From positions 579,904 through 643,903 of the forward strand of contig CANLUT010000002.1 in assembly GCA_947494335.1 (NCBI GenBank): a stretch of DNA of 64,000 nucleotides. The letters are read 5' to 3'. The notes below the pieces were generated by a model. That model saw only the letters and a program-made list of their open reading frames with translations. It was not told the origin of the DNA and did not search any database. This DNA is from Oligoflexales bacterium. GTDB lineage: Bacteria > Bdellovibrionota_B > Oligoflexia > Oligoflexales > RGVZ01. Positions 19,785 to 49,743 of this stretch are shown piece by piece. Made by a program: the position numbers and the translations under genes. Position 1 is the first letter of the stretch. Every line of letters starts with the position of its first letter.

Positions 19785-20585
19785 ATGAAAATACTGACTA
19801 CGAAACAATTATTCCTCTCGTTGCACTTTTTCGTAGCCTTTTATTGCAGCAGTACACTCGCTAATCCTGTTTCTGTAGATATGGAGCTTCCCTACAAATA
19901 TATTAGCTTTATCGTGAAAGATGCTAAAACGGGCAAGCCGATCAGCGAAGGCCGCGAAGATCTCAGGCAAGAAAATGGTTATATGACAAAGACTACCAAG
20001 TACTGGCTATTTGGCGACCGAAATAAGTCCGTGATTCAGGAAGAGACATGTTCATTTGAGTTGAAATCGCTTCGGCCAAAATATTACAAATTCCAGAACG
20101 CGAAGACTGGCGAATTTGTCTCGTTAACTGGGCCTAATGAGTCGGCCTTCGCCGAAAGTCTCCGTTACAAAGACGCTGCTGATAAACCAGAAGTTTCGGG
20201 CACATTCGCATGGAAAAGTGGCATGATTTTTGGCAAGACACTACATCATTTGATTGTCCGCTCCTGGCCAAAGCTGGTGAAAAATGATCATGAATCATTC
20301 CCTCTCTATGTACCCATGAAGAGAGATCAGTATGTTTTCAGAGTTTCGAAAAAGTCCGATAAGACTGCAGGTGATGTCGTCACGAGAGTGATATCTCTTG
20401 AGCCAGATAACTGGGCTTTTAGACAGCTGGCTCCCTCCATGCTCTTCTTTTACGCCGAGAAAAACGGTGTACCGACAGTGGTTCGATATGAGGGTCCAAC
20501 AACCGTCACAGTGGACAAGGACTCAGATCGCAAAGTGGTCATTGAATTCGCCTACGATTCCGAAATCTCAGGAGCTGCGCTTTAG
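19785..20585 (+). CDS. Hypothetical secreted protein
   Basis: 266-aa ORF with a signal peptide (LFLSLHFFVAFYCSSTLA). No family recognised. Confidence 0.55.
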   Translation: MKILTTKQLFLSLHFFVAFYCSSTLANPVSVDMELPYKYISFIVKDAKTGKPISEGREDLRQENGYMTKTTKYWLFGDRNKSVIQEETCSFELKSLRPKYYKFQNAKTGEFVSLTGPNESAFAESLRYKDAADKPEVSGTFAWKSGMIFGKTLHHLIVRSWPKLVKNDHESFPLYVPMKRDQYVFRVSKKSDKTAGDVVTRVISLEPDNWAFRQLAPSMLFFYAEKNGVPTVVRYEGPTTVTVDKDSDRKVVIEFAYDSEISGAAL

Positions 20586-27940: not shown

Positions 27941-27942
27941 GA

Positions 27943-28521
27943 TTATTGCTTGACCGTCCACCGATTGCCCACATTGAACCAATGTCCTGTTGGAGATTTC
28001 TCAAAGATATCTCGCGCAAAATTTGTACGAATTTGAGATTCCTCCGAATCTTTTGACTTGGCCTCGTCGGTGATTGAGCTCTTCCAAATAATGCCGCGAT
28101 CACGATTTTCCTCGTCTATCAATGCCTCGGCCAGCTTGATTTGCTCGGGTGACGCCTGCGTAACTCCGCCGAGGGATTTTGGGAGCAAGCCGACAGAACC
28201 GTCAGAAGTTTCTCCGATGATTCCGTTATCTTTGAGTTCTTTAATATCGTCAGCATTGAACTCTCGGTTTTTCTGTGCGCGCTCGAGCTCGACGGTTGCT
28301 AGAGACTTTCGTTGTGACTTTACCTCAATATCCTTTGAAGTTTTTTCAAAGTTAGTAACGATAAGGTCGTCTTCAAGCTCTCGATAGTTCCCCATGATCT
28401 GATTCTCTAGTGCTGTTTTTTGAGATGTCAGCTCAAATTTGAAGGAGCAAGCGCTTAGAAGTAGTGCGCTCGTGATTGTTAGGATTCGAAGTTCCGGTAA
28501 GCGATTAGTGTGCAGAATCAT
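27943..28521 (-). CDS. DUF1318/YdbL-like lipoprotein
   Basis: Lipobox LLLSAC. GIIGETSDGSVGLLPK, EALIDEENRDRGIIW and the C-terminal GHWFNVGNRWTVKQ resemble E. coli YdbL family features. Overlaps the upstream gene by 17 nt. Confidence 0.55.
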   Translation of the reverse strand: MILHTNRLPELRILTITSALLLSACSFKFELTSQKTALENQIMGNYRELEDDLIVTNFEKTSKDIEVKSQRKSLATVELERAQKNREFNADDIKELKDNGIIGETSDGSVGLLPKSLGGVTQASPEQIKLAEALIDEENRDRGIIWKSSITDEAKSKDSEESQIRTNFARDIFEKSPTGHWFNVGNRWTVKQ

Positions 28522-31500: not shown

Positions 31501-31813
31501 CTTTTATGTGTATGAACTCTTTAGCCGGGATCTGACGCACAGTTCCGTCGATTTGTGGTGGTTGAAATTTTATGTTCCTACCTGTAAATCCTCGGAACGC
31601 ATTGAAGTCCAATGCTTCAATAGCAAGTTTTCCACCGGTCTCTTCGGCAACACTTTTCTCCAGGAGACGGAGCACTTTTTGAGTGTCAGTCACCAGATAA
31701 AGAGTCACGGCTAATGTTATGACGATGGTCGCTCCAGCTGCGAACAGCGCAAGCAACCAGCGAAGTATTGTTCGCCACACGTTTAACGCTCCTAAGAGAG
31801 CCGTAAATATCAA
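28505..31813 (-). CDS. AsmA-like / YdbH-like large inner-membrane-anchored envelope protein
   Basis: 1102 aa with a single N-terminal TM (LLALFAAGATIVITLAVTLYLV). The remainder is long, beta-rich and repetitive. The assignment rests on this architecture and on synteny with the ydbL-like gene, not on a motif. TTG start as in the ORF track. Confidence 0.5.
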   Translation of the reverse strand: MIFTALLGALNVWRTILRWLLALFAAGATIVITLAVTLYLVTDTQKVLRLLEKSVAEETGGKLAIEALDFNAFRGFTGRNIKFQPPQIDGTVRQIPAKEFIHIKEFRLHYNLWALLYGTLRITRAQIHGGIIAVNGDYAKSEFQGITLYRIKSGKSQPQQPGASSESVPIGGVIRSLSKMFWIPIRIKATKIGIQHLDVNILQDGKKVTLTDLSALVNLSAYWRHLDAELGISLQNLAMNNILTDKLSSNLSLQMVANEKLGGFDIRKIRLKILDELLRSETNLSIYPNSEDDKILSYSASHQTRLTMKLPSNLSKLLPFELKSDGEINIAISKIAGNVRPDQVAQNISESKLYLLMPNITSAVIEGKKLQASLPSMGLSMANYNFAYQFEENRKETDNIQISSKMSHSLESLNFRFKKENQNNTAYLRNITASMTNGLHFPLPTTATSKLAINIGNVGVEGDSFEPVSVPFSFEVDADSADSLRSLFLHQRLKLGELLSQQLIAKCNDGCQTFEVTNEAAIPSFEKIWSQIKANASRMLIPKFVPEDIKGQLAFKSEIKGSGLIDGKGHFNPKTNALKLRHETALTITDLSLAIPANRAFVKKAGYSLNIDGSERKLSTSIRQTIDVAGAQIEGKAKKTHEVRVHGVDLKTNLVSNANLSYSLAKILNSIKTSFNAEFSVGRVDIPSALNKPLTNIKLTSSGNTSSLRNLNIQSLKIALPDLATAVESAAELTLDDEQQPTSFNVKTKVSVDDIPRGFVKGFDAKGSVKTDVLISSSDMDTANLTALIDLQNVSASFQSQDSPNISAEIQDISGTIPLQQAIQISSFKKFSTTPTKQDRNTTADDGTQTELGAIDDDAVINEANNYLTRIKPAVTGDTRITLNQDYANFREFYTQRRPIKVRSARAMNLNIENIEVDLELTQNQLAINNAVASFLGGKLHADFKLAFDERPTSLKTSFHATRINTEKLVKTVPGLRKKSKNILSSNNPLIDAAAHLNYDLRTGDMQGGLSITSIGKDQLRMILYYIDPGDRDATISAIKTALNFGDVKLVSVPIKNGEIGLDVNLRLLSAPIPTPKLQGFPIAKLINNFREQGEDTNDSAH

Positions 31814-35991: not shown

Positions 35992-37017
35992 TTAGCTGAC
36001 TTTAACAGTTAATCCAGGGCCACCAACCACCACATCCATGACCTGGCCCCCGGCATTTGTCATAGCTTTTGAGACTTTTTCCGTGAGTTCGCGCGGACAG
36101 AAGACACCCATGACACCACCGCCGCCCGCACCGCAAACTCTCGTAAACATCGCACCGGCATCCTTGGCTGCGATGTCAACCCGTTTTGTTTCCTCGGTTT
36201 CAATCTTAGGCCAAAGTGCGGTTCTTAGCAGCCACTCGCGTTTAGACGCAGCAATCGCCTCTTTCCACATTTTTTTGGAGACCGCTTCGGCGCAATCAGC
36301 AGCTTCGTGGCCAATGGCGGCAATTTTTTCGAGAAGTCCTTGGTCACCATCGAAGATGCGCTTGAAAATTTCCCAGTTGTTAATGGCGCTGGCTCTTGAT
36401 TTGCCGCTGTAGCAGCAAATCAGGTTAAAGTCCTGCCCCTCCCAGATTGAACCTGGAAGCGTGGTAACAGTTGTGCGCCCAAACGGAAATTCGATGATGT
36501 TTATGCCACCACGCATGCCGCCCCAGTAGTCTTGAACGCCGGTTGGCGCATGTATGACTCGCGACTCCACGTCTTGGGCCGTTCGGACCAGCTCAAACTC
36601 ATCGGGAATTTTATAGGATGGTTCAAACTGTTTGCGCGCTTGAGCAATTGCTCCAACGAATGCGACAGAGAGGCAGCTAGATCCCCCTAAACCTGCTCCA
36701 GCCGGTGATCTTGCGCTGGTTTTGATTTTTATCGCTGGGAGATTCTTGTTCCAAAATGCGCTTAGCAGAAGCGAGAAAAGGCGAAGCTTTGATGAACTGA
36801 TAATTTGTTCAAAAGTCCCGCTATCAGAAATTTTTTGGTCAGTACTTTCAAAATAAAACAATTTGTCAGGAGAGGGTGTCATTTCAACAGAGGCTTCGAG
36901 ACTCACGGCAACGTTGACGGTCGCTTTGCGGTCCAAAAGGTTATGAATGGGCCAAAGGTCAATTGTTCCTCCCGCTAGGTCGACGCGAGTGGGTGCAATG
37001 GAGTTGATTTTGAACAT
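35992..37017 (-). CDS. GHMP-family sugar kinase (HddA/fucokinase-like)
   Basis: N-terminal APTRVDLAGGTIDLWP and the GHMP ATP motif SPAGAGLGGSSCLSVA. Confidence 0.7.
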   Translation of the reverse strand: MFKINSIAPTRVDLAGGTIDLWPIHNLLDRKATVNVAVSLEASVEMTPSPDKLFYFESTDQKISDSGTFEQIISSSKLRLFSLLLSAFWNKNLPAIKIKTSARSPAGAGLGGSSCLSVAFVGAIAQARKQFEPSYKIPDEFELVRTAQDVESRVIHAPTGVQDYWGGMRGGINIIEFPFGRTTVTTLPGSIWEGQDFNLICCYSGKSRASAINNWEIFKRIFDGDQGLLEKIAAIGHEAADCAEAVSKKMWKEAIAASKREWLLRTALWPKIETEETKRVDIAAKDAGAMFTRVCGAGGGGVMGVFCPRELTEKVSKAMTNAGGQVMDVVVGGPGLTVKVS

Positions 37018-37063: not shown

Positions 37064-37630
37064 ATGGGTGACGCTCTTGTGTGGAGTGAGGTTCAGTTGA
37101 CTATAAAGCATTTATTTGACCAAAAACGCATGCGCGTCTGTCATTGGAACGCAACTCCAGGATTTATTTCTGCAGCTTCTGCTGCCATCGAGCATCACCT
37201 TAAACTTTTAATAAAATTAGATATGGTTGAGGTGCGTTCGCTAGACGACCCCAACCTAAGGCCGGCTGATGTGCTGTTTATTTCAGCAGATGGTATTGAG
37301 GACGAACAGTATCCCGTATGGCTAAAAGGTATAAGTACTCGAATTCCCAAGGCTCACGGCATTCCTGTACCTACGATTATTTTTGGTAATATTTCGTCGG
37401 CTGTCCAGTCAGAGATTCTGCGATGGGCAGTTGAAGGCAATTGGTATTTTGATATTGTCGACCCCGGCCATGTCTCAAGCTTAACTGTGCGTGTTGCCAA
37501 CTTCCTAAGGGTTCATGATCACCTTCATGAGATCCGGCGCATGAGTATCGCCAGCAAGACTTTGGAGGACAAGGTTGCGGACATGGAAAAACAAATTGAG
37601 CAAATATTGAAAGGCCCCACCAAGCCGTGA
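37064..37630 (+). CDS. Hypothetical protein (receiver-like fold with C-terminal coiled coil; weak)
   Basis: 188-aa ORF. VLFISADG and PTIIFGN resemble CheY beta3/beta4, followed by a helical tail. Its stop overlaps the next start (GTGA). Confidence 0.45.
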   Translation: MGDALVWSEVQLTIKHLFDQKRMRVCHWNATPGFISAASAAIEHHLKLLIKLDMVEVRSLDDPNLRPADVLFISADGIEDEQYPVWLKGISTRIPKAHGIPVPTIIFGNISSAVQSEILRWAVEGNWYFDIVDPGHVSSLTVRVANFLRVHDHLHEIRRMSIASKTLEDKVADMEKQIEQILKGPTKP

Positions 37631-37917
37631 CCATGATTGACGCCAAAAATATGTCCGACGAAGGTTTAATCGCACATTATGTGATTGAGCTTCTTGGAGC
37701 CGGACATTTCCTGTCCCATGATGACTACGCGCGGCTTGGAAAGTGGCGTGAACTGTCTTCGTCAACTGATGAGCTGCTTCTCGTCTTAGATGAAGTCCTG
37801 TCCGCAAAAATTATGAAATCTCGTCAAAAGGGCAAAAAAGTTTTTTCTCTCTCCTCGATCAGCAAAACTATGGAAAAAAGGCTGAGTGAGCGAAAAATGC
37901 TCGTTCAAGGGGCTTAA
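37627..37917 (+). CDS. Hypothetical small protein
   Basis: 96-aa ORF, translationally coupled on both sides. Alternative ATG at 37633. No family recognised. Confidence 0.4.
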   Translation: MTMIDAKNMSDEGLIAHYVIELLGAGHFLSHDDYARLGKWRELSSSTDELLLVLDEVLSAKIMKSRQKGKKVFSLSSISKTMEKRLSERKMLVQGA

Positions 37918-37918
37918 C

Positions 37919-38314
37919 ATGTCAAAAACTACTGATGTCGATATGGACAAGATTGTCGAAAGATTGAAAATAGACCGCATCAAGCGGCATATTTTTTTAT
38001 GTACTGGAGACAAATGTTGTTCGGCAGAGACTGGCATGAAAACCTGGGAGTTCCTTAAAAAACGAACTAAGGATGCTGATGCCGTTGAGGCTGGAGTTTA
38101 CCGAACAAAGGTTGGTTGTCTTCGCATTTGCCGCGAAGGTCCTATAGCTCTCGTTTACCCCGAAGGGGTTTGGTACAAAAATGTCACGGTTGACGCATGC
38201 GAGAAAATCATCGATCAGCATTTGATCTGTGGACAAATTGTGGAAGAACTAAAAATCGCCGAGCATTCATTACATCTGGATTTATCGTCAGGTGGCCAAT
38301 GGGACACCCCCTAG
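37919..38314 (+). CDS. Thioredoxin-like [2Fe-2S] ferredoxin family protein
   Basis: HIFLCTGDKCC and GCLRICREGP give the CX4C...CX3C cysteine pattern of thioredoxin-fold 2Fe-2S ferredoxins. The ATG at 37919 lies 1 nt after the upstream stop. Confidence 0.6.
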   Translation: MSKTTDVDMDKIVERLKIDRIKRHIFLCTGDKCCSAETGMKTWEFLKKRTKDADAVEAGVYRTKVGCLRICREGPIALVYPEGVWYKNVTVDACEKIIDQHLICGQIVEELKIAEHSLHLDLSSGGQWDTP

Positions 38315-38438: not shown

Positions 38439-38521
38439 TTAAATATGAGACAATCTACTGAGGAATTCACATTAATGTTCAGTGTCTAGGTTGCTAATTT
38501 AATTTGGAGTGGAGTCAAAGT

Positions 38522-39283
38522 ATGACGGAACTAACAGCAGCGCAGTTTTCGCTCGTTTACAACATGTTTTCTTTAACCATTGCTAGTATGGGGGCAGCAT
38601 TCATCTTCTTCCTAGCATCTAGGTCGCAAGTCGCGCCGAAATACCGTGGTGCGCTTACAGTGTCATCGTTGGTGGTGGCGATTGCTTGCTATCACTATTT
38701 CCGTATCTTCAATAGCTGGAACGAAGCGTTTACCTTAAGCGGCGCAGTCTACACGCCATCTGGGAAACCATTCAACGATGCTTACCGCTATGTTGATTGG
38801 CTTTTGACAGTTCCTCTACTTCTTGTTGAACTCGTTGCAGTATTGGCTTTGCCAAAAAATCAGCGCGAAGGCCTCTTTGGTAAGCTAGCTATCGCGGCTT
38901 TCCTGATGATTGCACTTGGTTACCCTGGTGAAGTCGCTACAGATAACACAACTCGCGCCATTTGGGGCACACTGTCTTCGATCCCATTCGCATACATCCT
39001 AATGATCCTTTGGGGCAAATTGGGTGCAGCAATCGAAAGCCAGCCAGGCGAGGCTAAAGTCTACTTGACTAATATCCGCCTACTACTTCTTTTGACTTGG
39101 GGCTTCTACCCAATCACCTACATGCTTCCGATGTTCGGCATTGACCCACAATCCTCGGTTGTTGGTATTCAGGTTGGATATGCTGTCGCTGACGTGCTTG
39201 CAAAAGCCTTCTACGGCGTTATGATCTACTGGATCGCAAGAGCTAAGTCAGAAAACGAAGGTTTCGCTGACGCTGCCCACTAA
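38522..39283 (+). CDS. Microbial rhodopsin, proteorhodopsin/xanthorhodopsin-type outward proton pump (DTE motif)
   Basis: Seven TM helices. RYVDWLLTVPLLLVE gives D92/T96/E103 (the DTE motif). H58 sits in CYHYF (the PR/XR-clade His). L100 is at the spectral-tuning site. ADVLAK gives D224 and the Schiff-base K228. WGFYPITY is in helix F. The ATG at 38522 follows GGAGTGGAG. The track's TTG at 38504 is less likely. Confidence 0.9.
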   Translation: MTELTAAQFSLVYNMFSLTIASMGAAFIFFLASRSQVAPKYRGALTVSSLVVAIACYHYFRIFNSWNEAFTLSGAVYTPSGKPFNDAYRYVDWLLTVPLLLVELVAVLALPKNQREGLFGKLAIAAFLMIALGYPGEVATDNTTRAIWGTLSSIPFAYILMILWGKLGAAIESQPGEAKVYLTNIRLLLLLTWGFYPITYMLPMFGIDPQSSVVGIQVGYAVADVLAKAFYGVMIYWIARAKSENEGFADAAH

Positions 39284-39323: not shown

Positions 39324-41372
39324 TTAAACCGCCTTCGCTGAAAAGCGAGGCGGTTTTTTCTTCAGAAATCTTTTCATGACCGGCGCATGAGACGCAGTTA
39401 AAGCTCCGATCCCTAAGAAAACGATCTTCCAAATTTGTTGACTACCGCCTGAGCGCGCATAGAGCCAGGCGAGCAGAAGAATCCCTACAAGGCTCAAGGT
39501 CGTGTAGGGGAGACTTTTTAACAGGTATTGCTTAGATGACCAGCCTTTTGCAGCTCGTTGGACCGCAATAGAATCCCAGCCGTGCCAGAATGCGAAGAAA
39601 CAAAAAAACCCAGGCAGTAGAGGTAGCGCCAAGGTTGAAGCGGCGAGCGCCAATGTAGCGGGCATTCCGATCACAGACCTACCAAGAGTCTTACGCTCAT
39701 ATCGATCAAAAATCGCGGACACAAACAGTGCTGCAACGAAAACAAGTACGCCGCATGCGCGCGCGGCCTCCAAGGTGATTCCCTCGATTGAAAGCGAATC
39801 ACCAAGAATTAACTGAATAATCGAATTGGCCTCCTGCCAATGGACTAGAACACCAAAGGTTGCGGCAAAAAAACCCCATACCCAAGCTAACACGCGGCTC
39901 CAAGTGGCATTCTTCGAGCTTTTTATGGCACGAATCCAGTTTGCCTCGCCGAAATGATCTGCAGATTGGAACAGGAAAAATGCTAACGCCATCGGGGGAA
40001 ATACAAACCAAGTGAGAATAAACAGTGCTATGGAGCCAAGATAAACACCATAAAACTGATAGGGTCTTTGAGCTGTGGGCTCAAGGAGATGATCTACGCT
40101 GCCGTGCCCAATTCCAGTCGTTAACAGACCTATGATGGGAATCGTCCATCCGGCCAAACCACCAAGTGTCCAATGAAGAACGAGACTGGCCGACGCCGCA
40201 AATATAAACGGATACAAAACTAAAAGACTACGTAAAAATGGAGCCCAAGGCAGACCAAAAAATATTCTAATTTCTTCAGTAAATTTCGATTTTTCATCAA
40301 GGAATAAGAGGATTTTTGAGGGACTATTCGCAGAGAAAAGAATGCAAAATACTTTCGAGATCATTTCTCCATTTGTTCTGATAATTCGCAGAAGAAGTGC
40401 GTCATAAACCTGAAAGCGAAAATGTCCGTAGGACGTGGTCGCTAAACCAGTCAAATGCCGAAGGTTTCTCTGGAAAGAGTAGCCTGTGCTTGCTTTGACC
40501 ATACCAGCAGCACTACCAATGACCTGGATAACTGAACTAGAGTCAGACCCTGGGAATTTCGGCTCCGCATTGAGAGTCATGGGAATAGCACCTGATTCTA
40601 CCTTGAGGATTTGGAAGTCTGGTAAGCAAAGCTTGCTAGAAATATATTCTCGAAGTATTGACTCACACTTTTCCAATGAGATCCTGTTGGCTGCAAACAC
40701 CGTAAATTCGACCAAAGCGCGACGTCGATCAAACGGTAAAACATACACAAAGCGAACTTCGCCGCGTTGTTCAAGCCTAAAATCCATCAAGTCCACTATT
40801 TGCGGATCAAAGTAATCCCGCTCTGTTTCAAGTTCAAAACCGAGGAAATACTGTAATAATTCGGACTTTTCGACAGTCACAGAATTATAGATACGCTTGG
40901 CTGAAAACGTCTGGCCAGACGCGGTCGTGACGACGGCTATCCTCTCTGCGTTGACCTCCTCGGGTCGCTCTAGAATCTCGGTGACAGAATCTTTGAGTTT
41001 TTGAAATCTTATATCGTTTTCGAGTCTTTGCTTGATTTTGATTAGGAGGCGGTCCCCGGGAATTCTCTCGTAGTAGTAATCACCAAAGTTACAGATAATT
41101 GGCCGACCATCTGTCGAAGTTATCCGAAATTTCTCCCAGCGGTTTTCGATACAATCTGAATAACGATGGGGAGTGGTTGTTTTAAGGCGCCATGAGGCAA
41201 ATGTCTTGGATGAAAGCGACTCAGGGTCTGGATCGATGATCGCAACTCGAAGATCTTTTGACGGGTCATCTGCAAGAATATCGGCTTGCATCAGACCCGC
41301 TAACCCACCACCAACGATTATGACGTCGAAATCTGTCAAATTGGAGACCATTTTATCAGCCTCCCTTTCCAC
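39324..41372 (-). CDS. Fusion protein: lycopene beta-cyclase (CrtY family) N-terminal, Brp/Blh beta-carotene 15,15'-dioxygenase C-terminal
   Basis: Cyclase half (about aa 1-385): FAD fold DVIIVGGGLAGL, FVYVLPFDRRRALVEFTVF, VIGSAAGMVKASTGYSF. Blh half (about aa 385-682): polytopic, with conserved His motifs GIGHGSVDH, QSADHFGE and FAFWHGWDS. One uninterrupted frame. Alternative ATG at 41351. Confidence 0.85.
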   Translation of the reverse strand: MEREADKMVSNLTDFDVIIVGGGLAGLMQADILADDPSKDLRVAIIDPDPESLSSKTFASWRLKTTTPHRYSDCIENRWEKFRITSTDGRPIICNFGDYYYERIPGDRLLIKIKQRLENDIRFQKLKDSVTEILERPEEVNAERIAVVTTASGQTFSAKRIYNSVTVEKSELLQYFLGFELETERDYFDPQIVDLMDFRLEQRGEVRFVYVLPFDRRRALVEFTVFAANRISLEKCESILREYISSKLCLPDFQILKVESGAIPMTLNAEPKFPGSDSSSVIQVIGSAAGMVKASTGYSFQRNLRHLTGLATTSYGHFRFQVYDALLLRIIRTNGEMISKVFCILFSANSPSKILLFLDEKSKFTEEIRIFFGLPWAPFLRSLLVLYPFIFAASASLVLHWTLGGLAGWTIPIIGLLTTGIGHGSVDHLLEPTAQRPYQFYGVYLGSIALFILTWFVFPPMALAFFLFQSADHFGEANWIRAIKSSKNATWSRVLAWVWGFFAATFGVLVHWQEANSIIQLILGDSLSIEGITLEAARACGVLVFVAALFVSAIFDRYERKTLGRSVIGMPATLALAASTLALPLLPGFFCFFAFWHGWDSIAVQRAAKGWSSKQYLLKSLPYTTLSLVGILLLAWLYARSGGSQQIWKIVFLGIGALTASHAPVMKRFLKKKPPRFSAKAV
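39326..39359 (+). terminator. Rho-independent terminator for the rhodopsin gene, embedded in the 3' codons of the convergent crtY-blh gene
   Basis: AAACCGCCTTCGC-tgaaaa-GCGAGGCGGTTTTTT: a stem with one bulge followed by a T6 tract. Confidence 0.6.
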
Positions 41373-42493
41373 TCATAGCGACCACTCTGACTGGTCCTTA
41401 GGGCCTTGTAAGCAGCGATGTCCAATAGCAGTAAACTGAGCGGGTGCAGCAGTAGATCACGAAGTGGCATCATAAAACATTTAGCCACTAAAACCCTGCT
41501 CAAAGCCAACAAACAAAGTGAAATAAAGGCCAACTCGGGTCGAAAAAAATAACCCCAAATTGGAAATAGAAAAACAAAATTAATAAATCCGATAACGCAT
41601 CTAAAAACCGACGGTGTACCACCACCGATCGCCACTAGATTTTTCGAAAATCCAGCCAAGGTAGCCCGCCAATCGGGGTACATCGATACCCGAATGTGAC
41701 TCGCTGAGAGAACTGGCTGAAGACCACGACCTGTGACTCGGTGAATCTGACGCGCCAGTTCGACGTCCTCTAACGGGGTCGAACCAAGACCTCGGTGACC
41801 GCCGCTTTTACAATAGTCCCTCTTGAAGATGGCGACCCATTGCCCATTTGCCATCTGCATCGATTGCAAGGGTAAGCGCCACGAGCAAAACAAGGGTAGC
41901 GACATCATTAATGGAAGATGCATAATCCATGGTATCAGTAAACGCTCACGCAAGCCTTGGCACGACTGTGCTGGTAAAGCCGATAACCCGGACATTAGCT
42001 CGCGCGCCCGTGGCTGCATCAAGAGATCTACGGTACAACGAACAGCGCTGGGCGAGGGTCGCACATCGGCGTCGCAGAAAATTAAAATATCTCCATTAGC
42101 TAAGTCGGCAAGTTGTGCGCAAGCATGAGCTTTCCCCGAGATTTCTTTACTATCGTTCCATGGGACTCCCCGCACGATCTTTAATGGGATAGTAGTATTT
42201 GACAAGAACGAGTTTGCAATCGCTGAGGAGTCGTCGTGAGACTCGTCATCTAAAATAATCACCTCCATTGGTCTGTAAGTTGATGCCAGCAGATTCGTCA
42301 GAAGGTGGGGGATATTTTCGGCCTCATTTCGAACAGGTATGAGTAAACTGACCAGGGGTTTTTCACCTGAATATTCAGTCACACTTCCCAGTTTAGTTGC
42401 AAAAATTGCATTAAGGATGACCATTATCGTGGAGATAACAATGACCGAGAATGAAATCAAACTTACGATGTTACTGAGGAGGGTTAGATCCAT
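41336..42493 (-). CDS. Family-2 glycosyltransferase (candidate carotenoid glycosyltransferase, CruC/CruG-like)
   Basis: VSLLIPVRNEAENI...VIILDDESHDDS and FCDADV are GT2 (GT-A) motifs, with C-terminal TM helices. Overlaps both neighbours within the crt operon. Confidence 0.7.
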   Translation of the reverse strand: MDLTLLSNIVSLISFSVIVISTIMVILNAIFATKLGSVTEYSGEKPLVSLLIPVRNEAENIPHLLTNLLASTYRPMEVIILDDESHDDSSAIANSFLSNTTIPLKIVRGVPWNDSKEISGKAHACAQLADLANGDILIFCDADVRPSPSAVRCTVDLLMQPRARELMSGLSALPAQSCQGLRERLLIPWIMHLPLMMSLPLFCSWRLPLQSMQMANGQWVAIFKRDYCKSGGHRGLGSTPLEDVELARQIHRVTGRGLQPVLSASHIRVSMYPDWRATLAGFSKNLVAIGGGTPSVFRCVIGFINFVFLFPIWGYFFRPELAFISLCLLALSRVLVAKCFMMPLRDLLLHPLSLLLLDIAAYKALRTSQSGRYEWKGRLIKWSPI

Positions 42494-43152
42494 CGGTGGA
42501 CGCCTCCTGCTAGTAAAGTCTGGGGTGCGTTCAAGGATGCTACATCTAAAATTTTTGTGACTTCAGTCTCTAAAGTTTTATGATCAACTTCAGTACGCGC
42601 GCTATCAATTGGTTGACCGGCGTAAATGAAGGCCGTCGGCCTCTCATGATTCATAGGCTCAATGTGCAGCCCAATAGGAACGTACTGAACCCGACCTGTA
42701 ATTTTAGATAGTATTTCAATTCCACGCAGAAAGCCGAGTGGCCGTTGCCGCAGTGGTGATATTTTCCCTTGTGGGAAAAATGTTAGAGTCCGATAAGGAT
42801 TACTGGCAACCAGGTCTCGAAACTGCATAAAAGCTCGACGCACACTTGTTGGATTTCCCGGCTCTATTCCAAAGCAACCCACCTTGCGTAAGATTGGGAA
42901 TTTCGCAAGTTCGCTTTCCAGCATCAATGAGAAGATACCGGATCCAGGCCTCAGGCGATTTTGGACTTCAAAGCAGAAAAAACCATCCCACCAGCTAATA
43001 TGATTTGGCACCAATATAACTGGTACCTCAGGATTCAGTTGACCAATGGCGTTTTTCAAATCGAAATGTATAGATGCAAAACATTTCTGGTACTTCCAAT
43101 GGAGGTACCGATCCCAAAACCATCGGACAATGTCGTTATGTCGAGGTGCCAC
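42484..43152 (-). CDS. PlsC-type acyltransferase (candidate carotenoid-glycoside acyltransferase, CruD-like)
   Basis: HX4D motif in VPNHISWWDGF, and FFPQGK. The functional assignment is by context. Confidence 0.65.
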   Translation of the reverse strand: MAPRHNDIVRWFWDRYLHWKYQKCFASIHFDLKNAIGQLNPEVPVILVPNHISWWDGFFCFEVQNRLRPGSGIFSLMLESELAKFPILRKVGCFGIEPGNPTSVRRAFMQFRDLVASNPYRTLTFFPQGKISPLRQRPLGFLRGIEILSKITGRVQYVPIGLHIEPMNHERPTAFIYAGQPIDSARTEVDHKTLETEVTKILDVASLNAPQTLLAGGVHRWI

Positions 43153-44017
43153 GGGTCAATAATCCGAGCTGCAAAGTCCCTCGCGTGAAACTAAAAAGAC
43201 AGAGTAATAATAGTGTAACGGTCGTAAGAACAACAGGTGACCAGGCTGATCCAGCAATTGAAAGACCAACCGGAAGGGACAGGCTTAACAAGTAAAATTT
43301 GGCAGGCCACGAACGCTCAAAGCGATGGCCATAATTTGATAAACCCAAAATCTCAAAACTGAGGAATATTAAAAAGCCGGTGAGCAACCATCCAAAAAGA
43401 TTTCTGACGGCAACTCCTAAGAAAAAGACCCCAGACTCTTCCCAAATCCAGTAAGGAGTTAACTGACTCATGGCAGGCTCCAGGGTGAAATCCCAGGCGA
43501 CTAGGAGCAATGATGCTATGATGATCCGTCCGAGGGGATGCGCCAAGCGACCTATAGAGCCTCGAGAGGCTCTCAGAGGTTTAGGCCCAAGAATCTGATT
43601 TGCTAGCAGATAACAACACAGAGCCATGCAAAACCAACTCACAGGAATCAACACAGGAACTTTATCGCCAAGCTTCCATCCAAGGAGGCTCGTATAGGAA
43701 TATTTGCCAAACGGGATACCGTAGCTTGTGCCGCCAAATTCCATAAAAAAACTGATCAAAAAAGCAGGCAGAAAGTACACCAGCCAACGCCAGCCCAAAA
43801 CTTTGTGGGCGGCCCTTATGCACAACCAAAAGCAAAGAAGAATCTGCAATCTAGCAAAAAGCGGGTATGATATGGCATAAATTGGCGGAGACCACGGATA
43901 GCGCGCAAAAAGCTCTGGATGTAGCGTAAAAGTTGCGTATCCAAAAATTGATATGGCATTAATGAAAAGCAAGGCCCACATTGGGGAGAAGAATAGCACA
44001 TGAGTCACTCGGGGCAA
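43136..44017 (-). CDS. Carotenoid biosynthesis membrane protein, DUF422/CruF-like (candidate carotenoid 1',2'-hydratase)
   Basis: Polytopic. GGTSYGIPFGKYSYTSLLGW and LEPAMS...WIWEESGVFFLGVAVRNLFGW resemble the Caroten_synth/CruF family. The track start is TTG 44017. ATG 43981 (MWALLFIN...) is a plausible alternative. Confidence 0.6.
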   Translation of the reverse strand: MPRVTHVLFFSPMWALLFINAISIFGYATFTLHPELFARYPWSPPIYAISYPLFARLQILLCFWLCIRAAHKVLGWRWLVYFLPAFLISFFMEFGGTSYGIPFGKYSYTSLLGWKLGDKVPVLIPVSWFCMALCCYLLANQILGPKPLRASRGSIGRLAHPLGRIIIASLLLVAWDFTLEPAMSQLTPYWIWEESGVFFLGVAVRNLFGWLLTGFLIFLSFEILGLSNYGHRFERSWPAKFYLLSLSLPVGLSIAGSAWSPVVLTTVTLLLLCLFSFTRGTLQLGLLTRGTST

Positions 44018-44761
44018 GGATATTTAGGACGTACGACAGTCATCAGCAGTGACAGCACAGCTCCGGCCTTAGGATGTTTAGTCGTTACCACATGGGTTGT
44101 AAGCCTTTGGTATGCGTTTACGCGCGTTCAAACAGGTGTTTTCCCTGACTCTTTAGCCAGCATTGCCTTAATGCTCTGGATGCAGTTTCTTTATTGTGGT
44201 CTATTTATCGTGACCCACGATGCCTGCCATGGCACTGCGTGGCCCGGAAATCCGAGGCTGAATCGATGGCTGGGGAAAACTACAGCGATGCTGTATGCGG
44301 CCTTTGATTTCGATCATCTGGTCCCGAAGCACCTTGCTCATCACGCTCATGTTGCAACCCTCCAAGATCCAGATTTCCACGATAATACTCGGCAGGGGAG
44401 AGGTTTTTCCGCCTGGGGTTGGCGATTTTTTAAGCATTATCTGAGCCTAAGGCAAATTCTTATCATGATGGCTGTGGCTCAGATTTTTTTTCATGTGCTG
44501 AATATACCGGAGAGAAACGTCATCCAATTTTGGATCGTCCCAGCTATTTTGAGTGGCATGCAGCTCTTTCTATTCGGCACTTGGCTACCACACAGGCCAA
44601 AAGCTGGTGAAGAGTTTCCCGATCGTCATCACGCGAGAGACTCTGGACTACCTTGGTTATTATCACTCGTTTCCTGCTGGCATTTCGGCTACCATCATAT
44701 TCATCACTTGAAACCCAGCGTGCCTTGGTACAGGTTACCGTCCTATAGGAGGCGAAAATGA
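44000..44761 (+). CDS. crtW: Beta-carotene 4-ketolase, CrtW type
   Basis: Fatty-acid-desaturase-type His boxes in CrtW arrangement: FIVTHDACHG, KHLAHHAH, DPDFH, WLPHRP and HFGYHHIHHL..PWYRLP. Confidence 0.85.
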   Translation: MSHSGQGYLGRTTVISSDSTAPALGCLVVTTWVVSLWYAFTRVQTGVFPDSLASIALMLWMQFLYCGLFIVTHDACHGTAWPGNPRLNRWLGKTTAMLYAAFDFDHLVPKHLAHHAHVATLQDPDFHDNTRQGRGFSAWGWRFFKHYLSLRQILIMMAVAQIFFHVLNIPERNVIQFWIVPAILSGMQLFLFGTWLPHRPKAGEEFPDRHHARDSGLPWLLSLVSCWHFGYHHIHHLKPSVPWYRLPSYRRRK

Positions 44762-44964
44762 AATTGCGATCGATCTTAATGTGGACCACGGGTGGCGCGT
44801 TGTTTGGAGTCGCCTTCGGAGCGATAGCTTCTATCTTTCAAGGTGGTCCAGATATGATGCGAGGTATCCAGGAATCATGGTGGTGGTTTGGCGTCGCTGG
44901 ATTTTTGATATCAACGATCGGCAACGGCAGCGATCCCGCGAGTGGCTCTAGTCAATCTCATTGA
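44758..44964 (+). CDS. Small two-TM membrane protein, translationally coupled to crtW
   Basis: The ATG overlaps the crtW stop (ATGA), with AGGAGG 5 nt upstream. 68 aa with two hydrophobic helices (GGALFGVAFGAIASIF; WWWFGVAGFLISTIG). Its last 54 nt overlap the 3' end of convergent crtB. Confidence 0.45.
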   Translation: MKLRSILMWTTGGALFGVAFGAIASIFQGGPDMMRGIQESWWWFGVAGFLISTIGNGSDPASGSSQSH

Positions 44965-45822
44965 CCCCAGTCCTTTGATCTTGAATACAAGTAATAGACC
45001 CTGAGCGACTGCGACTAACTTGCCCAGATTCGAAACCACAGTTCGCCTGCGGAACGCAGATTCTGGATTTACTTTCGCAGATCGCAACAGTTTATGCCCA
45101 ATTCGCTGATAAACCTTACCTGCGATTGCAATGGCAAAAGACACTCTCCAAGGCAGCCAGTAGATCCCTTGAAATCCATGTTCATACAACTCGTCTGCTC
45201 TTCGAAGTAGTTTGTTGACCGCATAGTGCGCAATTTCAGGATTGGTCGACAAAACCTTTGCGTCGATATTAACCAAAAGATCTTTGGGTATATAGATGCG
45301 ACCAATACTTGCATCGGCTTGGATATCTCGGGCGATGTTAGTCAACTGCATCGCAGAGCCCAGAGAAATAGCGTGAGCACTTGCCTGGTCAGGATGAGCT
45401 CCGAGAAGTGGGCACATCATAAGTCCTACGACGCCCGCGACACGAAAGCAATACTGTTCGAGCTCTTTGAGATTCCCGTAGCGGCAGCCTTCCACATCCA
45501 TGCGCATACCGGCAATGAATTCTGATCGCTGCCAGTCATCTAGCCAAAGCGGTCCAGAAAGAGCTGCATTTACTGACCCACGATTTTCCATCAGGGAAAG
45601 TCGTGCCTCTGCCGACTGCGAGTCAGGTGCATCATCGATGGCGTCATCACAGCGCCTACACCACTGATAAAGAAGTAAGACTTTGTCTCGGCAGCTCTTC
45701 GGCAGGAAAAGTGAGGCTAAGGAGAAACTTTTTGAGCCTTGCTTGATGACTTCAGCTGGAGACGAAGTAAAGTTAATTGTTTGTGAGTAAGTCATGCGTC
45801 GCTCCCGGCTCGCGACTTCCAA
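44911..45822 (-). CDS. crtB: Phytoene synthase
   Basis: YCFRVAGVVGLMMCPLLG and AMQLTNIARDIQADASIGRIYIP are squalene/phytoene synthase signatures. Alternative ATG at 45795. Confidence 0.9.
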   Translation of the reverse strand: MEVASRERRMTYSQTINFTSSPAEVIKQGSKSFSLASLFLPKSCRDKVLLLYQWCRRCDDAIDDAPDSQSAEARLSLMENRGSVNAALSGPLWLDDWQRSEFIAGMRMDVEGCRYGNLKELEQYCFRVAGVVGLMMCPLLGAHPDQASAHAISLGSAMQLTNIARDIQADASIGRIYIPKDLLVNIDAKVLSTNPEIAHYAVNKLLRRADELYEHGFQGIYWLPWRVSFAIAIAGKVYQRIGHKLLRSAKVNPESAFRRRTVVSNLGKLVAVAQGLLLVFKIKGLGSMRLTRATRGIAAVADR

Positions 45823-47329
45823 CGGGGAGAGCTGCCTTCAAGTCTTGAAGTACCAAAGATGCAGTAGCCTTAGCCGAGTTGACGACTCCTGGAACGCCGG
45901 CGCCTGGATGAGTCCCAGCCCCTGTAAAGTACATTCCAGCAACTCGACCATCGCGGTTATGAGTGCGAAAGAATGCGCTTTGCCAGAGTACGGGTTCACT
46001 GGAAAACGCTGAGCCCAGGTGTGAGTTTAATTCAAATTTGAAATCCAACGGAGTGAAAATCTTCTGAGTCACAATGTGCTTGCGCAGGTCGGGAGCGTAA
46101 TGTTGCTCAATATAACTTAATATACGGTCTGCGTAGGCTGGGCCTTCCTTTTGCCAGTCTAAATGAAGATTTCCGAGGTGCGGCACTGGAGATAGAACGT
46201 AAAATGCTTCACACCCTTCAGGCGCCATCCCTGGATCAGTCCGCGTCGGAGCATGCAAGTAGAGAGAAAAATCATCCGGGATTTTACTAGCCTTGGAAAA
46301 GATTTGACTCAAAAGTCCACGGTAGGACTTTCCGAAAAGAATATTATGATGTGCAAGCTCTGGATACTGTTTGTTAGTACCAAAATACACTAAGAATAAT
46401 GACATGCTTTGCGAGTGACTAAGAACCTTCTTTCGTCCTTGCTCTGCCTCGGGGGCGTTTCTTAGAAGATGGCTGTACGTGTGTACAACATCCGCGTTGG
46501 AAACAACAACATCACAAGGCCATACGCCGCTTGCAGTTTTCACACCACTAACGTGACCCTCAGTTGTGATGATCTCCTCCACTGGCGACGATAATCGAAC
46601 CTCACCACCGAGCTCTTCAAAGAGTCTGACTAATGCACGAACCAAAGCACCCGTGCCACCGCGTGGGAAGAAGACACCCCACTTTCGCTCAAGATAGTGG
46701 ATCAAAGTATAAATAGAAGACGTTTTAAAAGGGTTGCCGCCAACCAATAGCGTGTGAAAACTGAAGGCTTGACGGAGCTGAGGATCCTTGATGAAACGTG
46801 CGACCGTCTTGAAAACTGAGCGATGAGCGCTTAGTTTGGCTAGCTGCGGAGCGACACGGATCATGCTCCACCAGTTTAGGAACGGCACGTGGGCTAGTTT
46901 CGTGTAACCCTCGTCAAAAACCTCTTTTGAATATTTCAGAAATCTGGAGTAGCCATCCGTATCTTGTGGGGATTTTTTTTGAATTTGATCAAAAGTGCTT
47001 ACGGGGTCGTTGGAGTAATCAAATGAAAACCCATTCTCCCAGAATAATCGATAGAAGGGCGTCACAGGCATCATCTCGACGTAGTCTTCCATCCTTTTAC
47101 CGGCACAGTCGAAAAGTTCTCGCAAACAGTCTGGAGCAGTGATGACAGTCGGTCCGGCGTCAAACGTAAAGCCTTTGTCCCGGTAAACGTATGCCCGGCC
47201 TCCGGGTTGATCCCGTTTTTCAAACACTACAACCTGATGGCCTGCCGCTTGCAATCGGATGGCGGCAGCAAGACCTCCAAACCCACTTCCAATGACAGCA
47301 ATACGAGCAGAGTTCTTATTTTTATGCAT
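45773..47329 (-). CDS. crtI: Phytoene desaturase
   Basis: N-terminal IAVIGSGFGGLAAAIRL and the C-terminal CrtI signature FTGAGTHPGAGVPGV. Confidence 0.9.
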   Translation of the reverse strand: MHKNKNSARIAVIGSGFGGLAAAIRLQAAGHQVVVFEKRDQPGGRAYVYRDKGFTFDAGPTVITAPDCLRELFDCAGKRMEDYVEMMPVTPFYRLFWENGFSFDYSNDPVSTFDQIQKKSPQDTDGYSRFLKYSKEVFDEGYTKLAHVPFLNWWSMIRVAPQLAKLSAHRSVFKTVARFIKDPQLRQAFSFHTLLVGGNPFKTSSIYTLIHYLERKWGVFFPRGGTGALVRALVRLFEELGGEVRLSSPVEEIITTEGHVSGVKTASGVWPCDVVVSNADVVHTYSHLLRNAPEAEQGRKKVLSHSQSMSLFLVYFGTNKQYPELAHHNILFGKSYRGLLSQIFSKASKIPDDFSLYLHAPTRTDPGMAPEGCEAFYVLSPVPHLGNLHLDWQKEGPAYADRILSYIEQHYAPDLRKHIVTQKIFTPLDFKFELNSHLGSAFSSEPVLWQSAFFRTHNRDGRVAGMYFTGAGTHPGAGVPGVVNSAKATASLVLQDLKAALPVGSREPGATHDLLTNN

Positions 47330-48380
47330 ATGCAGTCATCACTTTCTGTGCCAGCTCTCGTAGCGAGGATATTGCCGCCACTTGCGCGCTAGTTTCGACG
47401 ATACAATTTAACTGATCCAAACATGTTTCGAATTCTGTCGTTGCTAATTCATGAGCCTTCTCGACGACTCGCTTTAAGAGTAATGAATCATCACTAGAAA
47501 TTTGATTAGGATTTCCCATCAAGTGCTGAAATCTCATAAATTCCGCCGCTTCAAGTTCTCTGGCAGCTACAGCCCAAACCCAGGAAGGCCTGACTAGTGG
47601 CCTACTGATCGTTTGATTCTTATTTTTTGGCGATACATCTCCAATGTCGTTAAACATCTGTAAGGCCACGCCGAAACGCTGACCGAATTTTGCCAGACAG
47701 CGGCGTCTCATTGAGTCCGCCTCACCCACGATTGCGCCTAATTCAGCACACATACCAGTTAGCTCGCCAGTCTTCAGTTCTATCGCTGCAACGGAAATAT
47801 CGAGCGCTTTCTGTTGAGAGCATTGGGTCATGTCGTGGCCAAGGTCAAGAGCCTGCCCCTGATGAGCGTACAGCATGGTCTTGTGGAAAAGACGGTAGAT
47901 CTCGAGCTCAACGGATGGATTAAGAGCCTGCTGACGCAGTAAATCTATTGGCCAAAAATAAAGCCAGTTCGCCGCATTGATGGTACGTGGAACTCCGATC
48001 TGCATATGCAGCGCCGCCTTGCCGCGGCGCATTTCGTCTGCATCTTGGATGTCATCGATCATGAGTGAGCCAGCATGCAAGGCTTCAACCACGCATGCCA
48101 AGCAGTCGAGAAGTGATTGCTGGCTTGCGATCAAGGGTTCAGCCTTAGTATTGGCGATAGTAAATCCAATGTGAACTAGTTGCGCACGAACCTGCTTGGA
48201 ATTACGACTTGCAAACTCACGAACCGGTGCTACCAAAGCAGCGTCTAAACTAGGATCAGAGGCGCTCGGTAGATGAGCAGCTAAAATAGGCACTAGCTCG
48301 GACCGGGTGTTATTATTTTGCAAGTATGTTTTATGATTTATCACCGGGAGAAGGGTAATAGATGTCTCAGTCGGGGTCAA
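47322..48380 (-). CDS. crtE: Polyprenyl (geranylgeranyl) diphosphate synthase
   Basis: First Asp-rich motif LMIDDIQDADEMRRGK. The second motif is degenerate (FNDIGD). First gene of the crtE-crtI-crtB unit, with an 8-nt overlap onto crtI. TTG start in the ORF track. Confidence 0.8.
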   Translation of the reverse strand: MTPTETSITLLPVINHKTYLQNNNTRSELVPILAAHLPSASDPSLDAALVAPVREFASRNSKQVRAQLVHIGFTIANTKAEPLIASQQSLLDCLACVVEALHAGSLMIDDIQDADEMRRGKAALHMQIGVPRTINAANWLYFWPIDLLRQQALNPSVELEIYRLFHKTMLYAHQGQALDLGHDMTQCSQQKALDISVAAIELKTGELTGMCAELGAIVGEADSMRRRCLAKFGQRFGVALQMFNDIGDVSPKNKNQTISRPLVRPSWVWAVAARELEAAEFMRFQHLMGNPNQISSDDSLLLKRVVEKAHELATTEFETCLDQLNCIVETSAQVAAISSLRELAQKVMTAYA

Positions 48381-48609: not shown

Positions 48610-49743
48610 CTACTCGGTCAAAGATCTCAATCTTTTCGGATGAAAAATTGCTTGTACGGTTTTAGATCTGCCGTTAGCTATAAATTCCGAAAGTCCTCGC
48701 CCGGCTGCGCAGCCCAGGGTGAGTCCTGAGCCCATGTAGCCGCTGGCCATCAGAACTCTTGAATCATTATACATGGGTCCAATGATTGGAATTTCATCGC
48801 AAGCCCTAAGCTCAAGAAGTGCTTGCTGCTGTGTCGGCTTCGAAAGTTTCACATCAAAGAGCGACTCAATTCTTTGCTTGACGGTGCTAGTGATCTTTTC
48901 GTCTAGATGCGCTCGGCTTGCCTCTACGCCAGCCCACTTTCTTAGATACCTCGCTCCACCGGCGCGAAGCTTTCTGTCCGAGGTGACTGAAATCCAGTAT
49001 TGGCTAAAATCCGCGAGTAGAAGGTTGCCAGGAGTCAAAAACGGATGCCCTCCATCAAACTCAAACTCCGCCCACTGGTCGGCATGATTGACTAGGCAGG
49101 ATTCCATGTTGGGAATGATTTTTTTGATTCCAAGGTGACTTGCTACCACAACAACTTCTGCCGTCAGCGTTGTTCCTGAAGACGTGACAACCGAGATATG
49201 GCGAGGAGCTGTTTCAATTCTGATGACTTCCTCTGGAAAAATCTTTCTACTAAGGTCTTCTTCCATATGACGCAGTAAGGATCCTATATTGATTGATGCG
49301 GAAGCCGCACCATCCGACTGGTAGGTCAGTTTTCGTGTCCCGCGCCCATCAAGACTTACAGAGCTTGGAAAGCCATTGCTGGCAAGCCAAGAGCTGGCGA
49401 CGGCCATCTCCTGTGCTTCCATATCTGACTGGGTGAGCCGGTAAACCCGCCCCGCGTGGTGGTTAACTTTAAACTGAGTTATCAGATCCATTAAATCTGA
49501 AAAGCCGATACGACCGAGCCTTAACAGGTTTCTTGCAGCGTCCTCGCCGTGCCCGTGCACCGTTCGAGAGATGTTATCCAAAGTGGAAATGGCTGCGTAG
49601 CCCGAGTTTATAGAGGCGCAGTTGGTAAAGTCGCGACTCGGAGCAACAAAGCAAAAAGATCCAATGCCATAGCGCTTCAGGTGAAAGCCTGTACTCAGAC
49701 CCGTAATACCCCTTCCAATTATGATGACGTCGAATGCTTCCAT
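48610..49743 (-). CDS. FAD-dependent oxidoreductase (DAO/glycine-oxidase-like family)
   Basis: N-terminal dinucleotide fold FDVIIIGRGITGLSTG. 377 aa. Confidence 0.7.
   Translation of the reverse strand: MEAFDVIIIGRGITGLSTGFHLKRYGIGSFCFVAPSRDFTNCASINSGYAAISTLDNISRTVHGHGEDAARNLLRLGRIGFSDLMDLITQFKVNHHAGRVYRLTQSDMEAQEMAVASSWLASNGFPSSVSLDGRGTRKLTYQSDGAASASINIGSLLRHMEEDLSRKIFPEEVIRIETAPRHISVVTSSGTTLTAEVVVVASHLGIKKIIPNMESCLVNHADQWAEFEFDGGHPFLTPGNLLLADFSQYWISVTSDRKLRAGGARYLRKWAGVEASRAHLDEKITSTVKQRIESLFDVKLSKPTQQQALLELRACDEIPIIGPMYNDSRVLMASGYMGSGLTLGCAAGRGLSEFIANGRSKTVQAIFHPKRLRSLTE

Follow-up and report, generated by a model that had tools for sequence, protein, structure and literature searches.

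Few rhodopsin pumps have, to our knowledge, a known native carotenoid antenna. In 2006, Maresca and Bryant reportedly identified CruC (CT1987) and CruD (CT0967) of Chlorobaculum tepidum as chlorobactene glucosyltransferase and lauroyltransferase. Rhodothermus marinus uses a CruF/CruC/CruD route to salinixanthin-type acyl glycosides, and when its cruF-crtB was deleted and replaced by a foreign crtB, lycopene was the only carotenoid that remained (PMC7414004, PMC5822342). Freshwater acI Actinobacteria carry a predicted 'actinoxanthin' operon (acyltransferase, crtA, cruF, cruG, crtD) together with actinorhodopsin (10.1101/367102). Here, we describe a related cassette, composed of cruF, an acyltransferase gene (AT), a family 2 glycosyltransferase gene (GT2) and a crtY-blh fusion, that adjoins a xanthorhodopsin (XR) gene in 64,000 nucleotides (nt) of DNA from an Oligoflexales bacterium (positions 579,904 to 643,903 of CANLUT010000002.1, a 779-kb metagenomic contig of assembly GCA_947494335.1; hereafter the window). 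We give a probability of roughly 0.72 to the reading that the cassette is a module for decorating the psi-end of a carotenoid and that its product docks to the XR as a likely antenna. The cassette belongs to an island of ~11 kb, ordered crtE-crtI-crtB (minus strand), crtW (plus), cruF-AT-GT2-crtYblh (minus) and rhodopsin (plus), with the following genes.

44911-48380, minus strand: crtE (geranylgeranyl diphosphate synthase), crtI and crtB, the upstream operon predicted to supply lycopene; profile matches and public gene call.
44000-44761, plus strand: crtW, beta-ring 4-ketolase, divergent from cruF; NCBIfam CrtW (223.7 bits) and PF00487.
43136-43981, minus strand: cruF-family carotenoid 1',2'-hydratase gene; PF04240, NCBIfam CruF and a conserved MWAL start.
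42484-43152, minus strand: PlsC-fold acyltransferase (CruD-like) with a GTG start, predicted to acylate the carotenoid sugar; PF01553, motifs, fold and context.
41336-42493, minus strand: membrane GT2 glycosyltransferase (CruC-like), predicted to glycosylate the 1'-hydroxyl; PF00535, homologue names and synteny.
39324-41351, minus strand: crtY-blh fusion (lycopene cyclase and beta-carotene 15,15'-dioxygenase), last of the overlapping run; PF05834 (171 bits) and PF15461 (112 bits).
38522-39283, plus strand: xanthorhodopsin, convergent with crtY-blh; best PDB match 3DDL (E value 7e-87); the open reading frame (ORF) extends to a TTG at 38504.

The nearest genomes to the window are freshwater Oligoflexales metagenome-assembled genomes (MAGs), for example from Lake Mendota. 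The arrangement of the island is kept in 11 Oligoflexales-type loci (L002-L012, some ending at a contig edge), and L005, the closest relative, is the only one whose flanks match as well. In a more distant locus, L116, the unit crtW/cruF-AT-GT2-crtYblh/rhodopsin is intact, with crtE-crtI-crtB relocated past the rhodopsin gene.

We propose that CrtE, CrtB and CrtI would provide lycopene, from which the CrtY part of the fusion would form gamma- and beta-carotene, and that Blh would cleave beta-carotene to retinal. CrtW would add a 4-keto group to the ring, CruF would hydrate the 1',2' double bond of gamma-carotene or of its 4-keto form to yield a 1'-hydroxyl, GT2 would place a sugar on this hydroxyl, and AT would esterify the sugar with a fatty acid; this sequence of reactions differs from the order of the genes (hydratase, acyltransferase, glycosyltransferase). 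The pigment expected from this pathway is a 4-keto-1'-hydroxy-gamma-carotene glycoside fatty-acid ester, which, compared with salinixanthin, would probably lack the 2'-hydroxyl and, if CrtI performs no additional desaturation, possibly also the 3',4' double bond. The island would then supply two chromophores, retinal and a monocyclic 4-keto carotenoid acyl glycoside, and the keto ring of the latter would dock in the glycine-opened pocket of the rhodopsin to form a light-harvesting antenna. As the original prediction, an earlier reading of this DNA made from its letters, had stated, the island holds no crtD-like desaturase: a tblastn search with CrtI over the 64-kb window returned CrtI alone. 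The bifunctional CrtID model scores CrtI at 330 bits against a cut-off of 640.

The type of pathway is already known, and the window is a further example of it and not a new mechanism. As in Salinibacter ruber and R. marinus (CrtY, CrtO, CruF, CruC, CruD), a monocyclic keto-carotenoid would undergo 1'-hydroxylation by CruF followed by glycosylation and acylation, and neither a dedicated CrtD nor a 2'-hydroxylase is identifiable. With Salinibacter, the window also shares an XR-type rhodopsin in which both the glycine and the Met-x-x-Met pocket are conserved. The two systems diverge in their ketolase, which is CrtW (di-iron family) in the window and CrtO in Salinibacter and Rhodothermus, and in the state of cruF, which is free-standing here and fused to crtB there. 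The glycosyltransferase gene of the window lies within the cluster, whereas R. marinus cruC is located elsewhere in the genome. Unlike in Salinibacter and Rhodothermus, crtY is fused to blh, all genes including that of the rhodopsin are gathered in one island, and the host is a freshwater Oligoflexales bacterium. The predicted use of a GT2 enzyme and a member of the lysophospholipid-acyltransferase family after 1'-hydroxylation is as described for CruC and CruD of C. tepidum. The parallel with acI extends to a freshwater photoheterotroph, an XR-like pump with a fenestration glycine and a carotenoid acyl glycoside operon, and in both cases reading-frame overlaps are evidence for the involvement of the acyltransferase. 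The acI operon contains crtA and crtD, no clear ketolase, and an acyltransferase annotated as a CoA methyl esterase; the window instead has crtW, neither crtA nor crtD, and an acyltransferase of the PlsC fold.

Profile searches against Pfam and NCBIfam with curated cut-offs returned the families that the original prediction had named for the three decoration enzymes: PF04240 (with CruF as the best NCBIfam model), PF01553 and PF00535. The first product, which had been likened to the CruF/DUF422-type family on the motifs GIPFGKYSYTSLLGW and NLFGW, carries both in its translation and matches PF04240 Caroten_synth at 150.1 bits (cut-off 25) over profile positions 6-208 of 209. Among the three CruF-type models compared, NCBIfam gamma-carotene 1'-hydroxylase CruF (NF045693) scores highest, at 138.8 bits, with the archaeal hydratase models at 88.8 and 51.1 bits.

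The HX4D acyltransferase motif that had been recognized in the second product (NHISWWDG) is likewise present in the translation, and the product matches PF01553. The blocks NHxSWWD and FPQG are conserved in AT relatives; H51 and D56 of HX4D and P127 and G129 of FPQG are invariant down to 23% identity, and Q128 is nearly so. A profile of the AT family matches Thermotoga PlsC (5KYM) with an E value of 2e-4 and aligned catalytic motifs. The same structure is the best Foldseek match (E value 6.6e-6) of an AlphaFold (AF2) model of AT, whose predicted local distance difference test (pLDDT) score is 83.6, followed by LpxM and GPAT. Among the carotenoid genes in clusters of the Ignavibacteria type, in which other ORFs were not scanned, no acyltransferase homologue besides that of AT was detected. 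A carotenoid cluster of this type was reported by the Bryant laboratory to contain cruD (PMC3362086), and together these two points give indirect support for AT as CruD.

For the third product, the proposed GT-A/GT2 assignment is backed by PF00535 (60.6 bits) and by the DD (ILDDES) and DXD (CDADV) motifs in the translation, which also has hydrophobic N- and C-terminal segments. Many GT2 homologues, including one that is 84% identical, have been automatically named chlorobactene glucosyltransferase (CruC) by the Joint Genome Institute (JGI); NCBIfam has no CruC model, and a sequence search of solved structures returned generic GT-A domains only. Two other identities for GT2 were considered and rejected on score, HpnB (the best NCBIfam match, at 70.6 bits against a cut-off of 379) and CruG (31 bits against 600).

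The four minus-strand reading frames are present where the original prediction had placed them, as seen in an ORF listing and by direct reading of the junctions, and its 17- and 10-nt overlaps hold to the nucleotide. The cruF stop codon (TAA, 43138-43136) lies downstream of the AT start (GTG, 43152), and the AT stop codon (TAA, 42486-42484) lies downstream of the GT2 start (ATG, 42493). For the third overlap, two ends had been offered. Homology of crtY-blh starts at the codon equivalent to ATG 41351 in nine related loci (a GTG in L007), and the public gene call on the window's contig has 675 amino acids (aa); the overlap is therefore 41336-41351, and the alternative start at GTG 41372 falls away.

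43136-43152, minus strand: cruF/AT overlap, 17 nt; cruF terminates at AT codons 5-6, and the GTG is preceded by no Shine-Dalgarno sequence.
42484-42493, minus strand: AT/GT2 overlap, 10 nt; AGGAGG lies 6 nt before the ATG (12 nt from its first base).
41336-41351, minus strand: GT2/crtY-blh overlap, 16 nt; GT2 stop TGA at 41338-41336, and GGGAGG 9 nt before the ATG.

The listed extent of the cruF frame, up to TTG 44017, had to be revised. The frame can be extended to GTG 43999, which is the public gene call, or to TTG 44017, in which case it covers the start codon of the divergent crtW (ATG 44000). In nine of nine relatives, the gene begins with a conserved ATG-TGG-GC (MWAL) equivalent to ATG 43981, and the sequence beyond this codon is therefore probably an over-extension of the ORF.

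Across related loci with 63-92% protein identity to the window, the 17-nt cruF/AT geometry (a GTG start, with the stop on AT codons 5-6) is kept in seven loci and the 16-nt GT2/crtY-blh overlap in nine, the GT2 stop lying 13-16 nt after the crtY-blh start. The AT/GT2 overlap is less constant in length, at 1-10 nt. Overlapping frames are also found in the more distant L116. Such conservation argues for a real, selected gene arrangement beyond chance, and coupled translation would be consistent with it, most of all at the GTG, which has no Shine-Dalgarno sequence. From this layout we infer that cruF-AT-GT2-crtYblh would form a single transcript with coupled translation, as the original prediction had proposed. 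A somewhat unlikely alternative is that the genes are co-transcribed and each initiates translation independently, with the overlaps reflecting compaction of the genome. It would account for the Shine-Dalgarno-like sequences that GT2 and crtY-blh each possess and for the variable AT/GT2 overlap; the crtE/crtI and crtI/crtB genes overlap too (by 8 nt and 23-50 nt), which suggests general compaction. Independent initiation fits less well at AT, whose GTG, without a Shine-Dalgarno sequence, precedes the cruF stop by 14 nt in a geometry kept exactly in seven genomes, a configuration better explained by termination-reinitiation.

Consensus scans tell nothing about the operon boundaries because their counts were close to those in shuffled sequence: 15 promoter-like sites against 14.9 +/- 4.7, and 19 terminator-like sites against 12.2 +/- 4.4, neither a clear difference. 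One upstream element is shared among relatives.

43990-43998, minus strand: extended -10-like element TGcTATTCT, 9-17 nt upstream of the cruF ATG.

All nine sequences compared have the pattern TGnTATnCT ahead of the cruF ATG, ending 9-11 nt before it in eight and farther away in L008, and no Shine-Dalgarno sequence precedes this ATG. We speculate that the element is a candidate promoter of a short-leader or leaderless cassette mRNA. The divergent start codons of crtW and cruF are separated by 18 nt in the window (43981-44002), by 1-2 nt in several relatives and by 19 nt in L116 (loci inspected: L002, L009-L012 and L116). Because the start codons are so close, each of the two promoters must sit inside the other gene. 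The spacing and the -10-like motif suggest a leaderless or very short-leader mRNA, or an antisense interplay between ketolase and cassette. At the other end of the run, where the rhodopsin and crtY-blh genes converge, a terminator-like hairpin with a T-run (39333-39350) is situated between the two and reaches into the last crtY-blh codons; it may be a shared or bidirectional terminator. A 146-aa AT call in a second assembly (L088) was considered as a frameshift variant and rejected, as its DNA is identical to that of the window and the gene call alone differs.

The strongest context for the cassette is the adjoining XR gene together with crtW, which had gone unmentioned in the original prediction and which points to an antenna role. 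The rhodopsin (253 aa in the public gene call) has Salinibacter XR (3DDL), Gloeobacter rhodopsin (GR) and Kin4B8 as its best solved relatives. It carries a DTE motif, the Schiff-base lysine and the histidine of the His-Asp pair, and its segments RYVDWLLTVPLLLVE, YHYFR and ADVLAK align to 3DDL. The fenestration glycine is retained, with Gly155 (IWGTLSS) aligned to XR Gly156 (LWGFLST), and the floor of the carotenoid pocket compares as follows.

Window XR: YMLPMF (every cassette-linked XR: YM(L/F)PMF).
Salinibacter XR: YMIPM.
Gloeobacter rhodopsin: YLLPM.
Kin4B8-type: YAMGSY.

The 4-keto group is needed for carotenoid binding to XR and GR, and Kin4B8 uses 3-hydroxy xanthophylls via Ser208/Tyr209 (PMC12308411). 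Kin4B8 (PDB 7YTB), from an uncultured freshwater Bdellovibrionota, shares phylum and habitat with the window's host; it is an XR-family protein with the fenestration glycine and is 57% identical to the window rhodopsin. Its pocket floor is polar (Ser208/Tyr209), whereas that of the window XR presents Met and Phe. The two differ also in setting: the window XR is physically linked to crtW and the cassette, whereas five metagenomic Kin4B8-type loci (90-99% identity) have no cassette homologue in their flanks of up to 10 kb, and L089 alone contains a short CrtI-like match of 60 residues. The type of pocket thus appears to go together with linkage to crtW and the cassette, a correlation drawn from few lineages, and this co-occurrence supports an antenna role for the predicted product of the cassette. 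The same Kin4B8-type genes (L089-L093) read MWAVLST, with Ala in place of the fenestration Gly153 of Kin4B8 (MWGVLST); these natural variants may differ in carotenoid binding.

Several points weigh against the reading of the cassette as a psi-end decoration module whose product serves the XR. At the level of the enzymes, the cruF product lies below the equivalog cut-off of NF045693 (138.8 against 400 bits) and is a family member and not an NCBI equivalog, and CrtW, the best family for the crtW product, also scores below its cut-off (223.7 against 350). AT passes PF01553 Acyltransferase marginally (24 bits, cut-off 23) and matches no NCBIfam model in the profile search. Protein searches seeded by AT itself and by a profile built on 15 diverse relatives gave generic lysophospholipid-acyltransferase names only, and the name CruD is absent among the best 120 of 1394 relatives. 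The CruD-like label is a prediction from motifs, fold and gene context, and the CruC-like label is one from the JGI names of homologues and gene context. The pathway as a whole is a prediction from the genes of this organism. At the level of the antenna, a chromophore made without a 3',4'-desaturase would be shorter than that of salinixanthin. Salinixanthin does bind to Kin4B8, which comes from the phylum of the window's host, but transfers no energy to it (10.1101/2022.08.24.505090; PMC12308411). Finally, among the 80 best-matching genome loci that encode an AT relative, each viewed with flanks of up to 10 kb, 72 have no rhodopsin within 10 kb of the cassette homologue. Because the cassette is so widespread without a nearby rhodopsin, it is not specific to antennas, and a membrane or photoprotective role would explain this distribution equally well.

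That role is the core of the most serious competing explanation, serious because the cassette is common without rhodopsins: the acyl glycoside would be a membrane-anchored photoprotectant or stabilizer only, and the adjacent rhodopsin gene would reflect the shared carotene backbone needed for retinal, with no antenna involved. The rhodopsin-free majority of cassettes, including those of Deinococcus, Cytobacillus and Ignavibacteria, speaks for it, as does the failure of Kin4B8 to gain energy from salinixanthin (10.1101/2022.08.24.505090). Set against these are two features of XR and GR that the window rhodopsin retains, the glycine at the fenestration and a hydrophobic pocket of the keto type; the presence inside the island, and conservation with it, of crtW, the source of the 4-keto group that XR and GR binding needs (PMC12308411); and the persistence of the crtW/cruF-AT-GT2-crtYblh/XR unit in L116 despite the moved crtE-crtI-crtB genes. 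On balance, we consider a purely protective role unlikely and favor the antenna.

A bolder form of the antenna reading, which we hold tentatively and at less than even odds, is that the island is a self-contained two-chromophore photosystem that makes its own new salinixanthin relative, 2'-deoxy and perhaps 3',4'-saturated, for a keto-tuned XR. If so, two XR lineages of one phylum, those of the window and Kin4B8, would have diverged in antenna chemistry, and pocket residues would co-vary with the linkage between rhodopsin gene and antenna pathway. In that case, the crtY-blh fusion and the overlapping frames would serve to balance flux at gamma-carotene between antenna and retinal. Kin4B8 is the freshwater Bdellovibrionota XR studied so far, and its antennas came from lake extracts and not from the host. 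In the window, ~11 kb joins a keto-pocket XR to every gene predicted to be needed for retinal and a candidate antenna, and because of this co-location within the phylum of Kin4B8, whether a freshwater host makes its own antenna can be tested directly.

The genomic context of the acyltransferase family bears on whether the cassette acts on carotenoids at all. At least one homologue of CruF, CrtI, CrtB, CrtW or CrtY lies in the flanks of 68 of the 80 AT loci, and a GT2 homologue stands directly downstream of the AT relative in 55. These loci come from Oligoflexales, Bdellovibrionales, Gemmatimonadota, Ignavibacteria/Melioribacteraceae, Spirochaetota, Bacteroidota, Acidobacteriota and others. A plasmid of Cytobacillus spongiae has the order cruF (annotated 'carotenoid biosynthesis protein')-AT-GT2 with 4-nt overlaps, adjoining crtI, and one of Deinococcus deserti has cruF-AT-DoxX-GT2, adjoining crtI and crtB. 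Elsewhere, an AT relative with 38% identity has cruF/crtE-crtB-fusion genes on one side and a NUDIX gene on the other; the carotenoid cluster to which it belongs also includes a MerR/B12 light regulator. The loci of Ignavibacteriaceae and Melioribacteraceae match the gene set described in the literature for carotenoid decoration, and in Ignavibacteria-type clusters a second CrtI-like gene immediately precedes AT.

The original prediction had allowed that the ORFs might match phospholipid or lipopolysaccharide (LPS) families with no link to carotenoids; instead, AT is tied to carotenoid genes across many phyla, and this family context decides in favor of a predicted carotenoid function over a phospholipid one. 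That AT and GT2 act on other lipids (phospholipid, LPS or hopanoid, in the manner of PlsC or HpnB) as mere neighbors of carotenoid genes is highly improbable: source annotations do name the AT family '1-acyl-sn-glycerol-3-phosphate acyltransferase' and HpnB is the best NCBIfam match of GT2, but that match falls far short of its cut-off, the AT-GT2 pair occurs with overlapping reading frames inside carotenoid clusters in at least seven phyla, and no hopanoid or lipid A gene is found among the 20 scanned ORFs of the island and its immediate flanks. The carotenoid reading of the cassette would also offer a context-based function for a large family of 'lysophospholipid acyltransferases' now annotated in databases as phospholipid enzymes.

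Three of the related loci have features of their own. In D. deserti plasmid 2 (L085, 6562-8010), the CruF-family gene encodes 482 aa, much above the usual length, and two further flavin adenine dinucleotide (FAD) oxidoreductases flank the cassette. Locus L001 (5368-7944) encodes an 858-aa fusion of polyprenyl synthase and phytoene synthase between the cruF and AT homologues, beside a MerR/B12-binding (CarH/LitR-like) regulator. In a Bdellovibrionales MAG (L013, 8492-11643), cruF-AT-GT2 is followed by a gene that matches the Blh half only (from residue 376), at which point the contig ends; the fusion of cyclase and dioxygenase is therefore not shared by the whole phylum.

The flanks of the island contain further genes. 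On the same strand as crtE and 229 nt upstream of it lies a gene for a DAO-family FAD oxidoreductase of 377 aa (48610-49743, minus strand). This enzyme was considered as the missing desaturase or hydroxylase and rejected, given its presence, among the related loci, in the closest relative (L005) only and its weak matches to amino-acid-oxidase models, and we leave its gene outside the island. Three small overlapping ORFs upstream of the rhodopsin gene (37064-38314, plus strand) are likewise found only in L005. Those of 188 and 96 aa have no family match, and that of 142 aa is thioredoxin-like 2Fe-2S ferredoxin-like, with a score of 61 bits, below the cut-off, for NCBIfam fdxn_Clost. Beside the island, a GHMP-family kinase (35992-37017, minus strand), for which the best models, heptose-7-phosphate kinase and mevalonate kinase, are weak matches, could be sugar- or isoprenoid-related. 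Farther away, two very long minus-strand ORFs (20582-27982 and 28505-31813) encode 2466 and 1102 aa, and a 192-aa ORF between them overlaps both.

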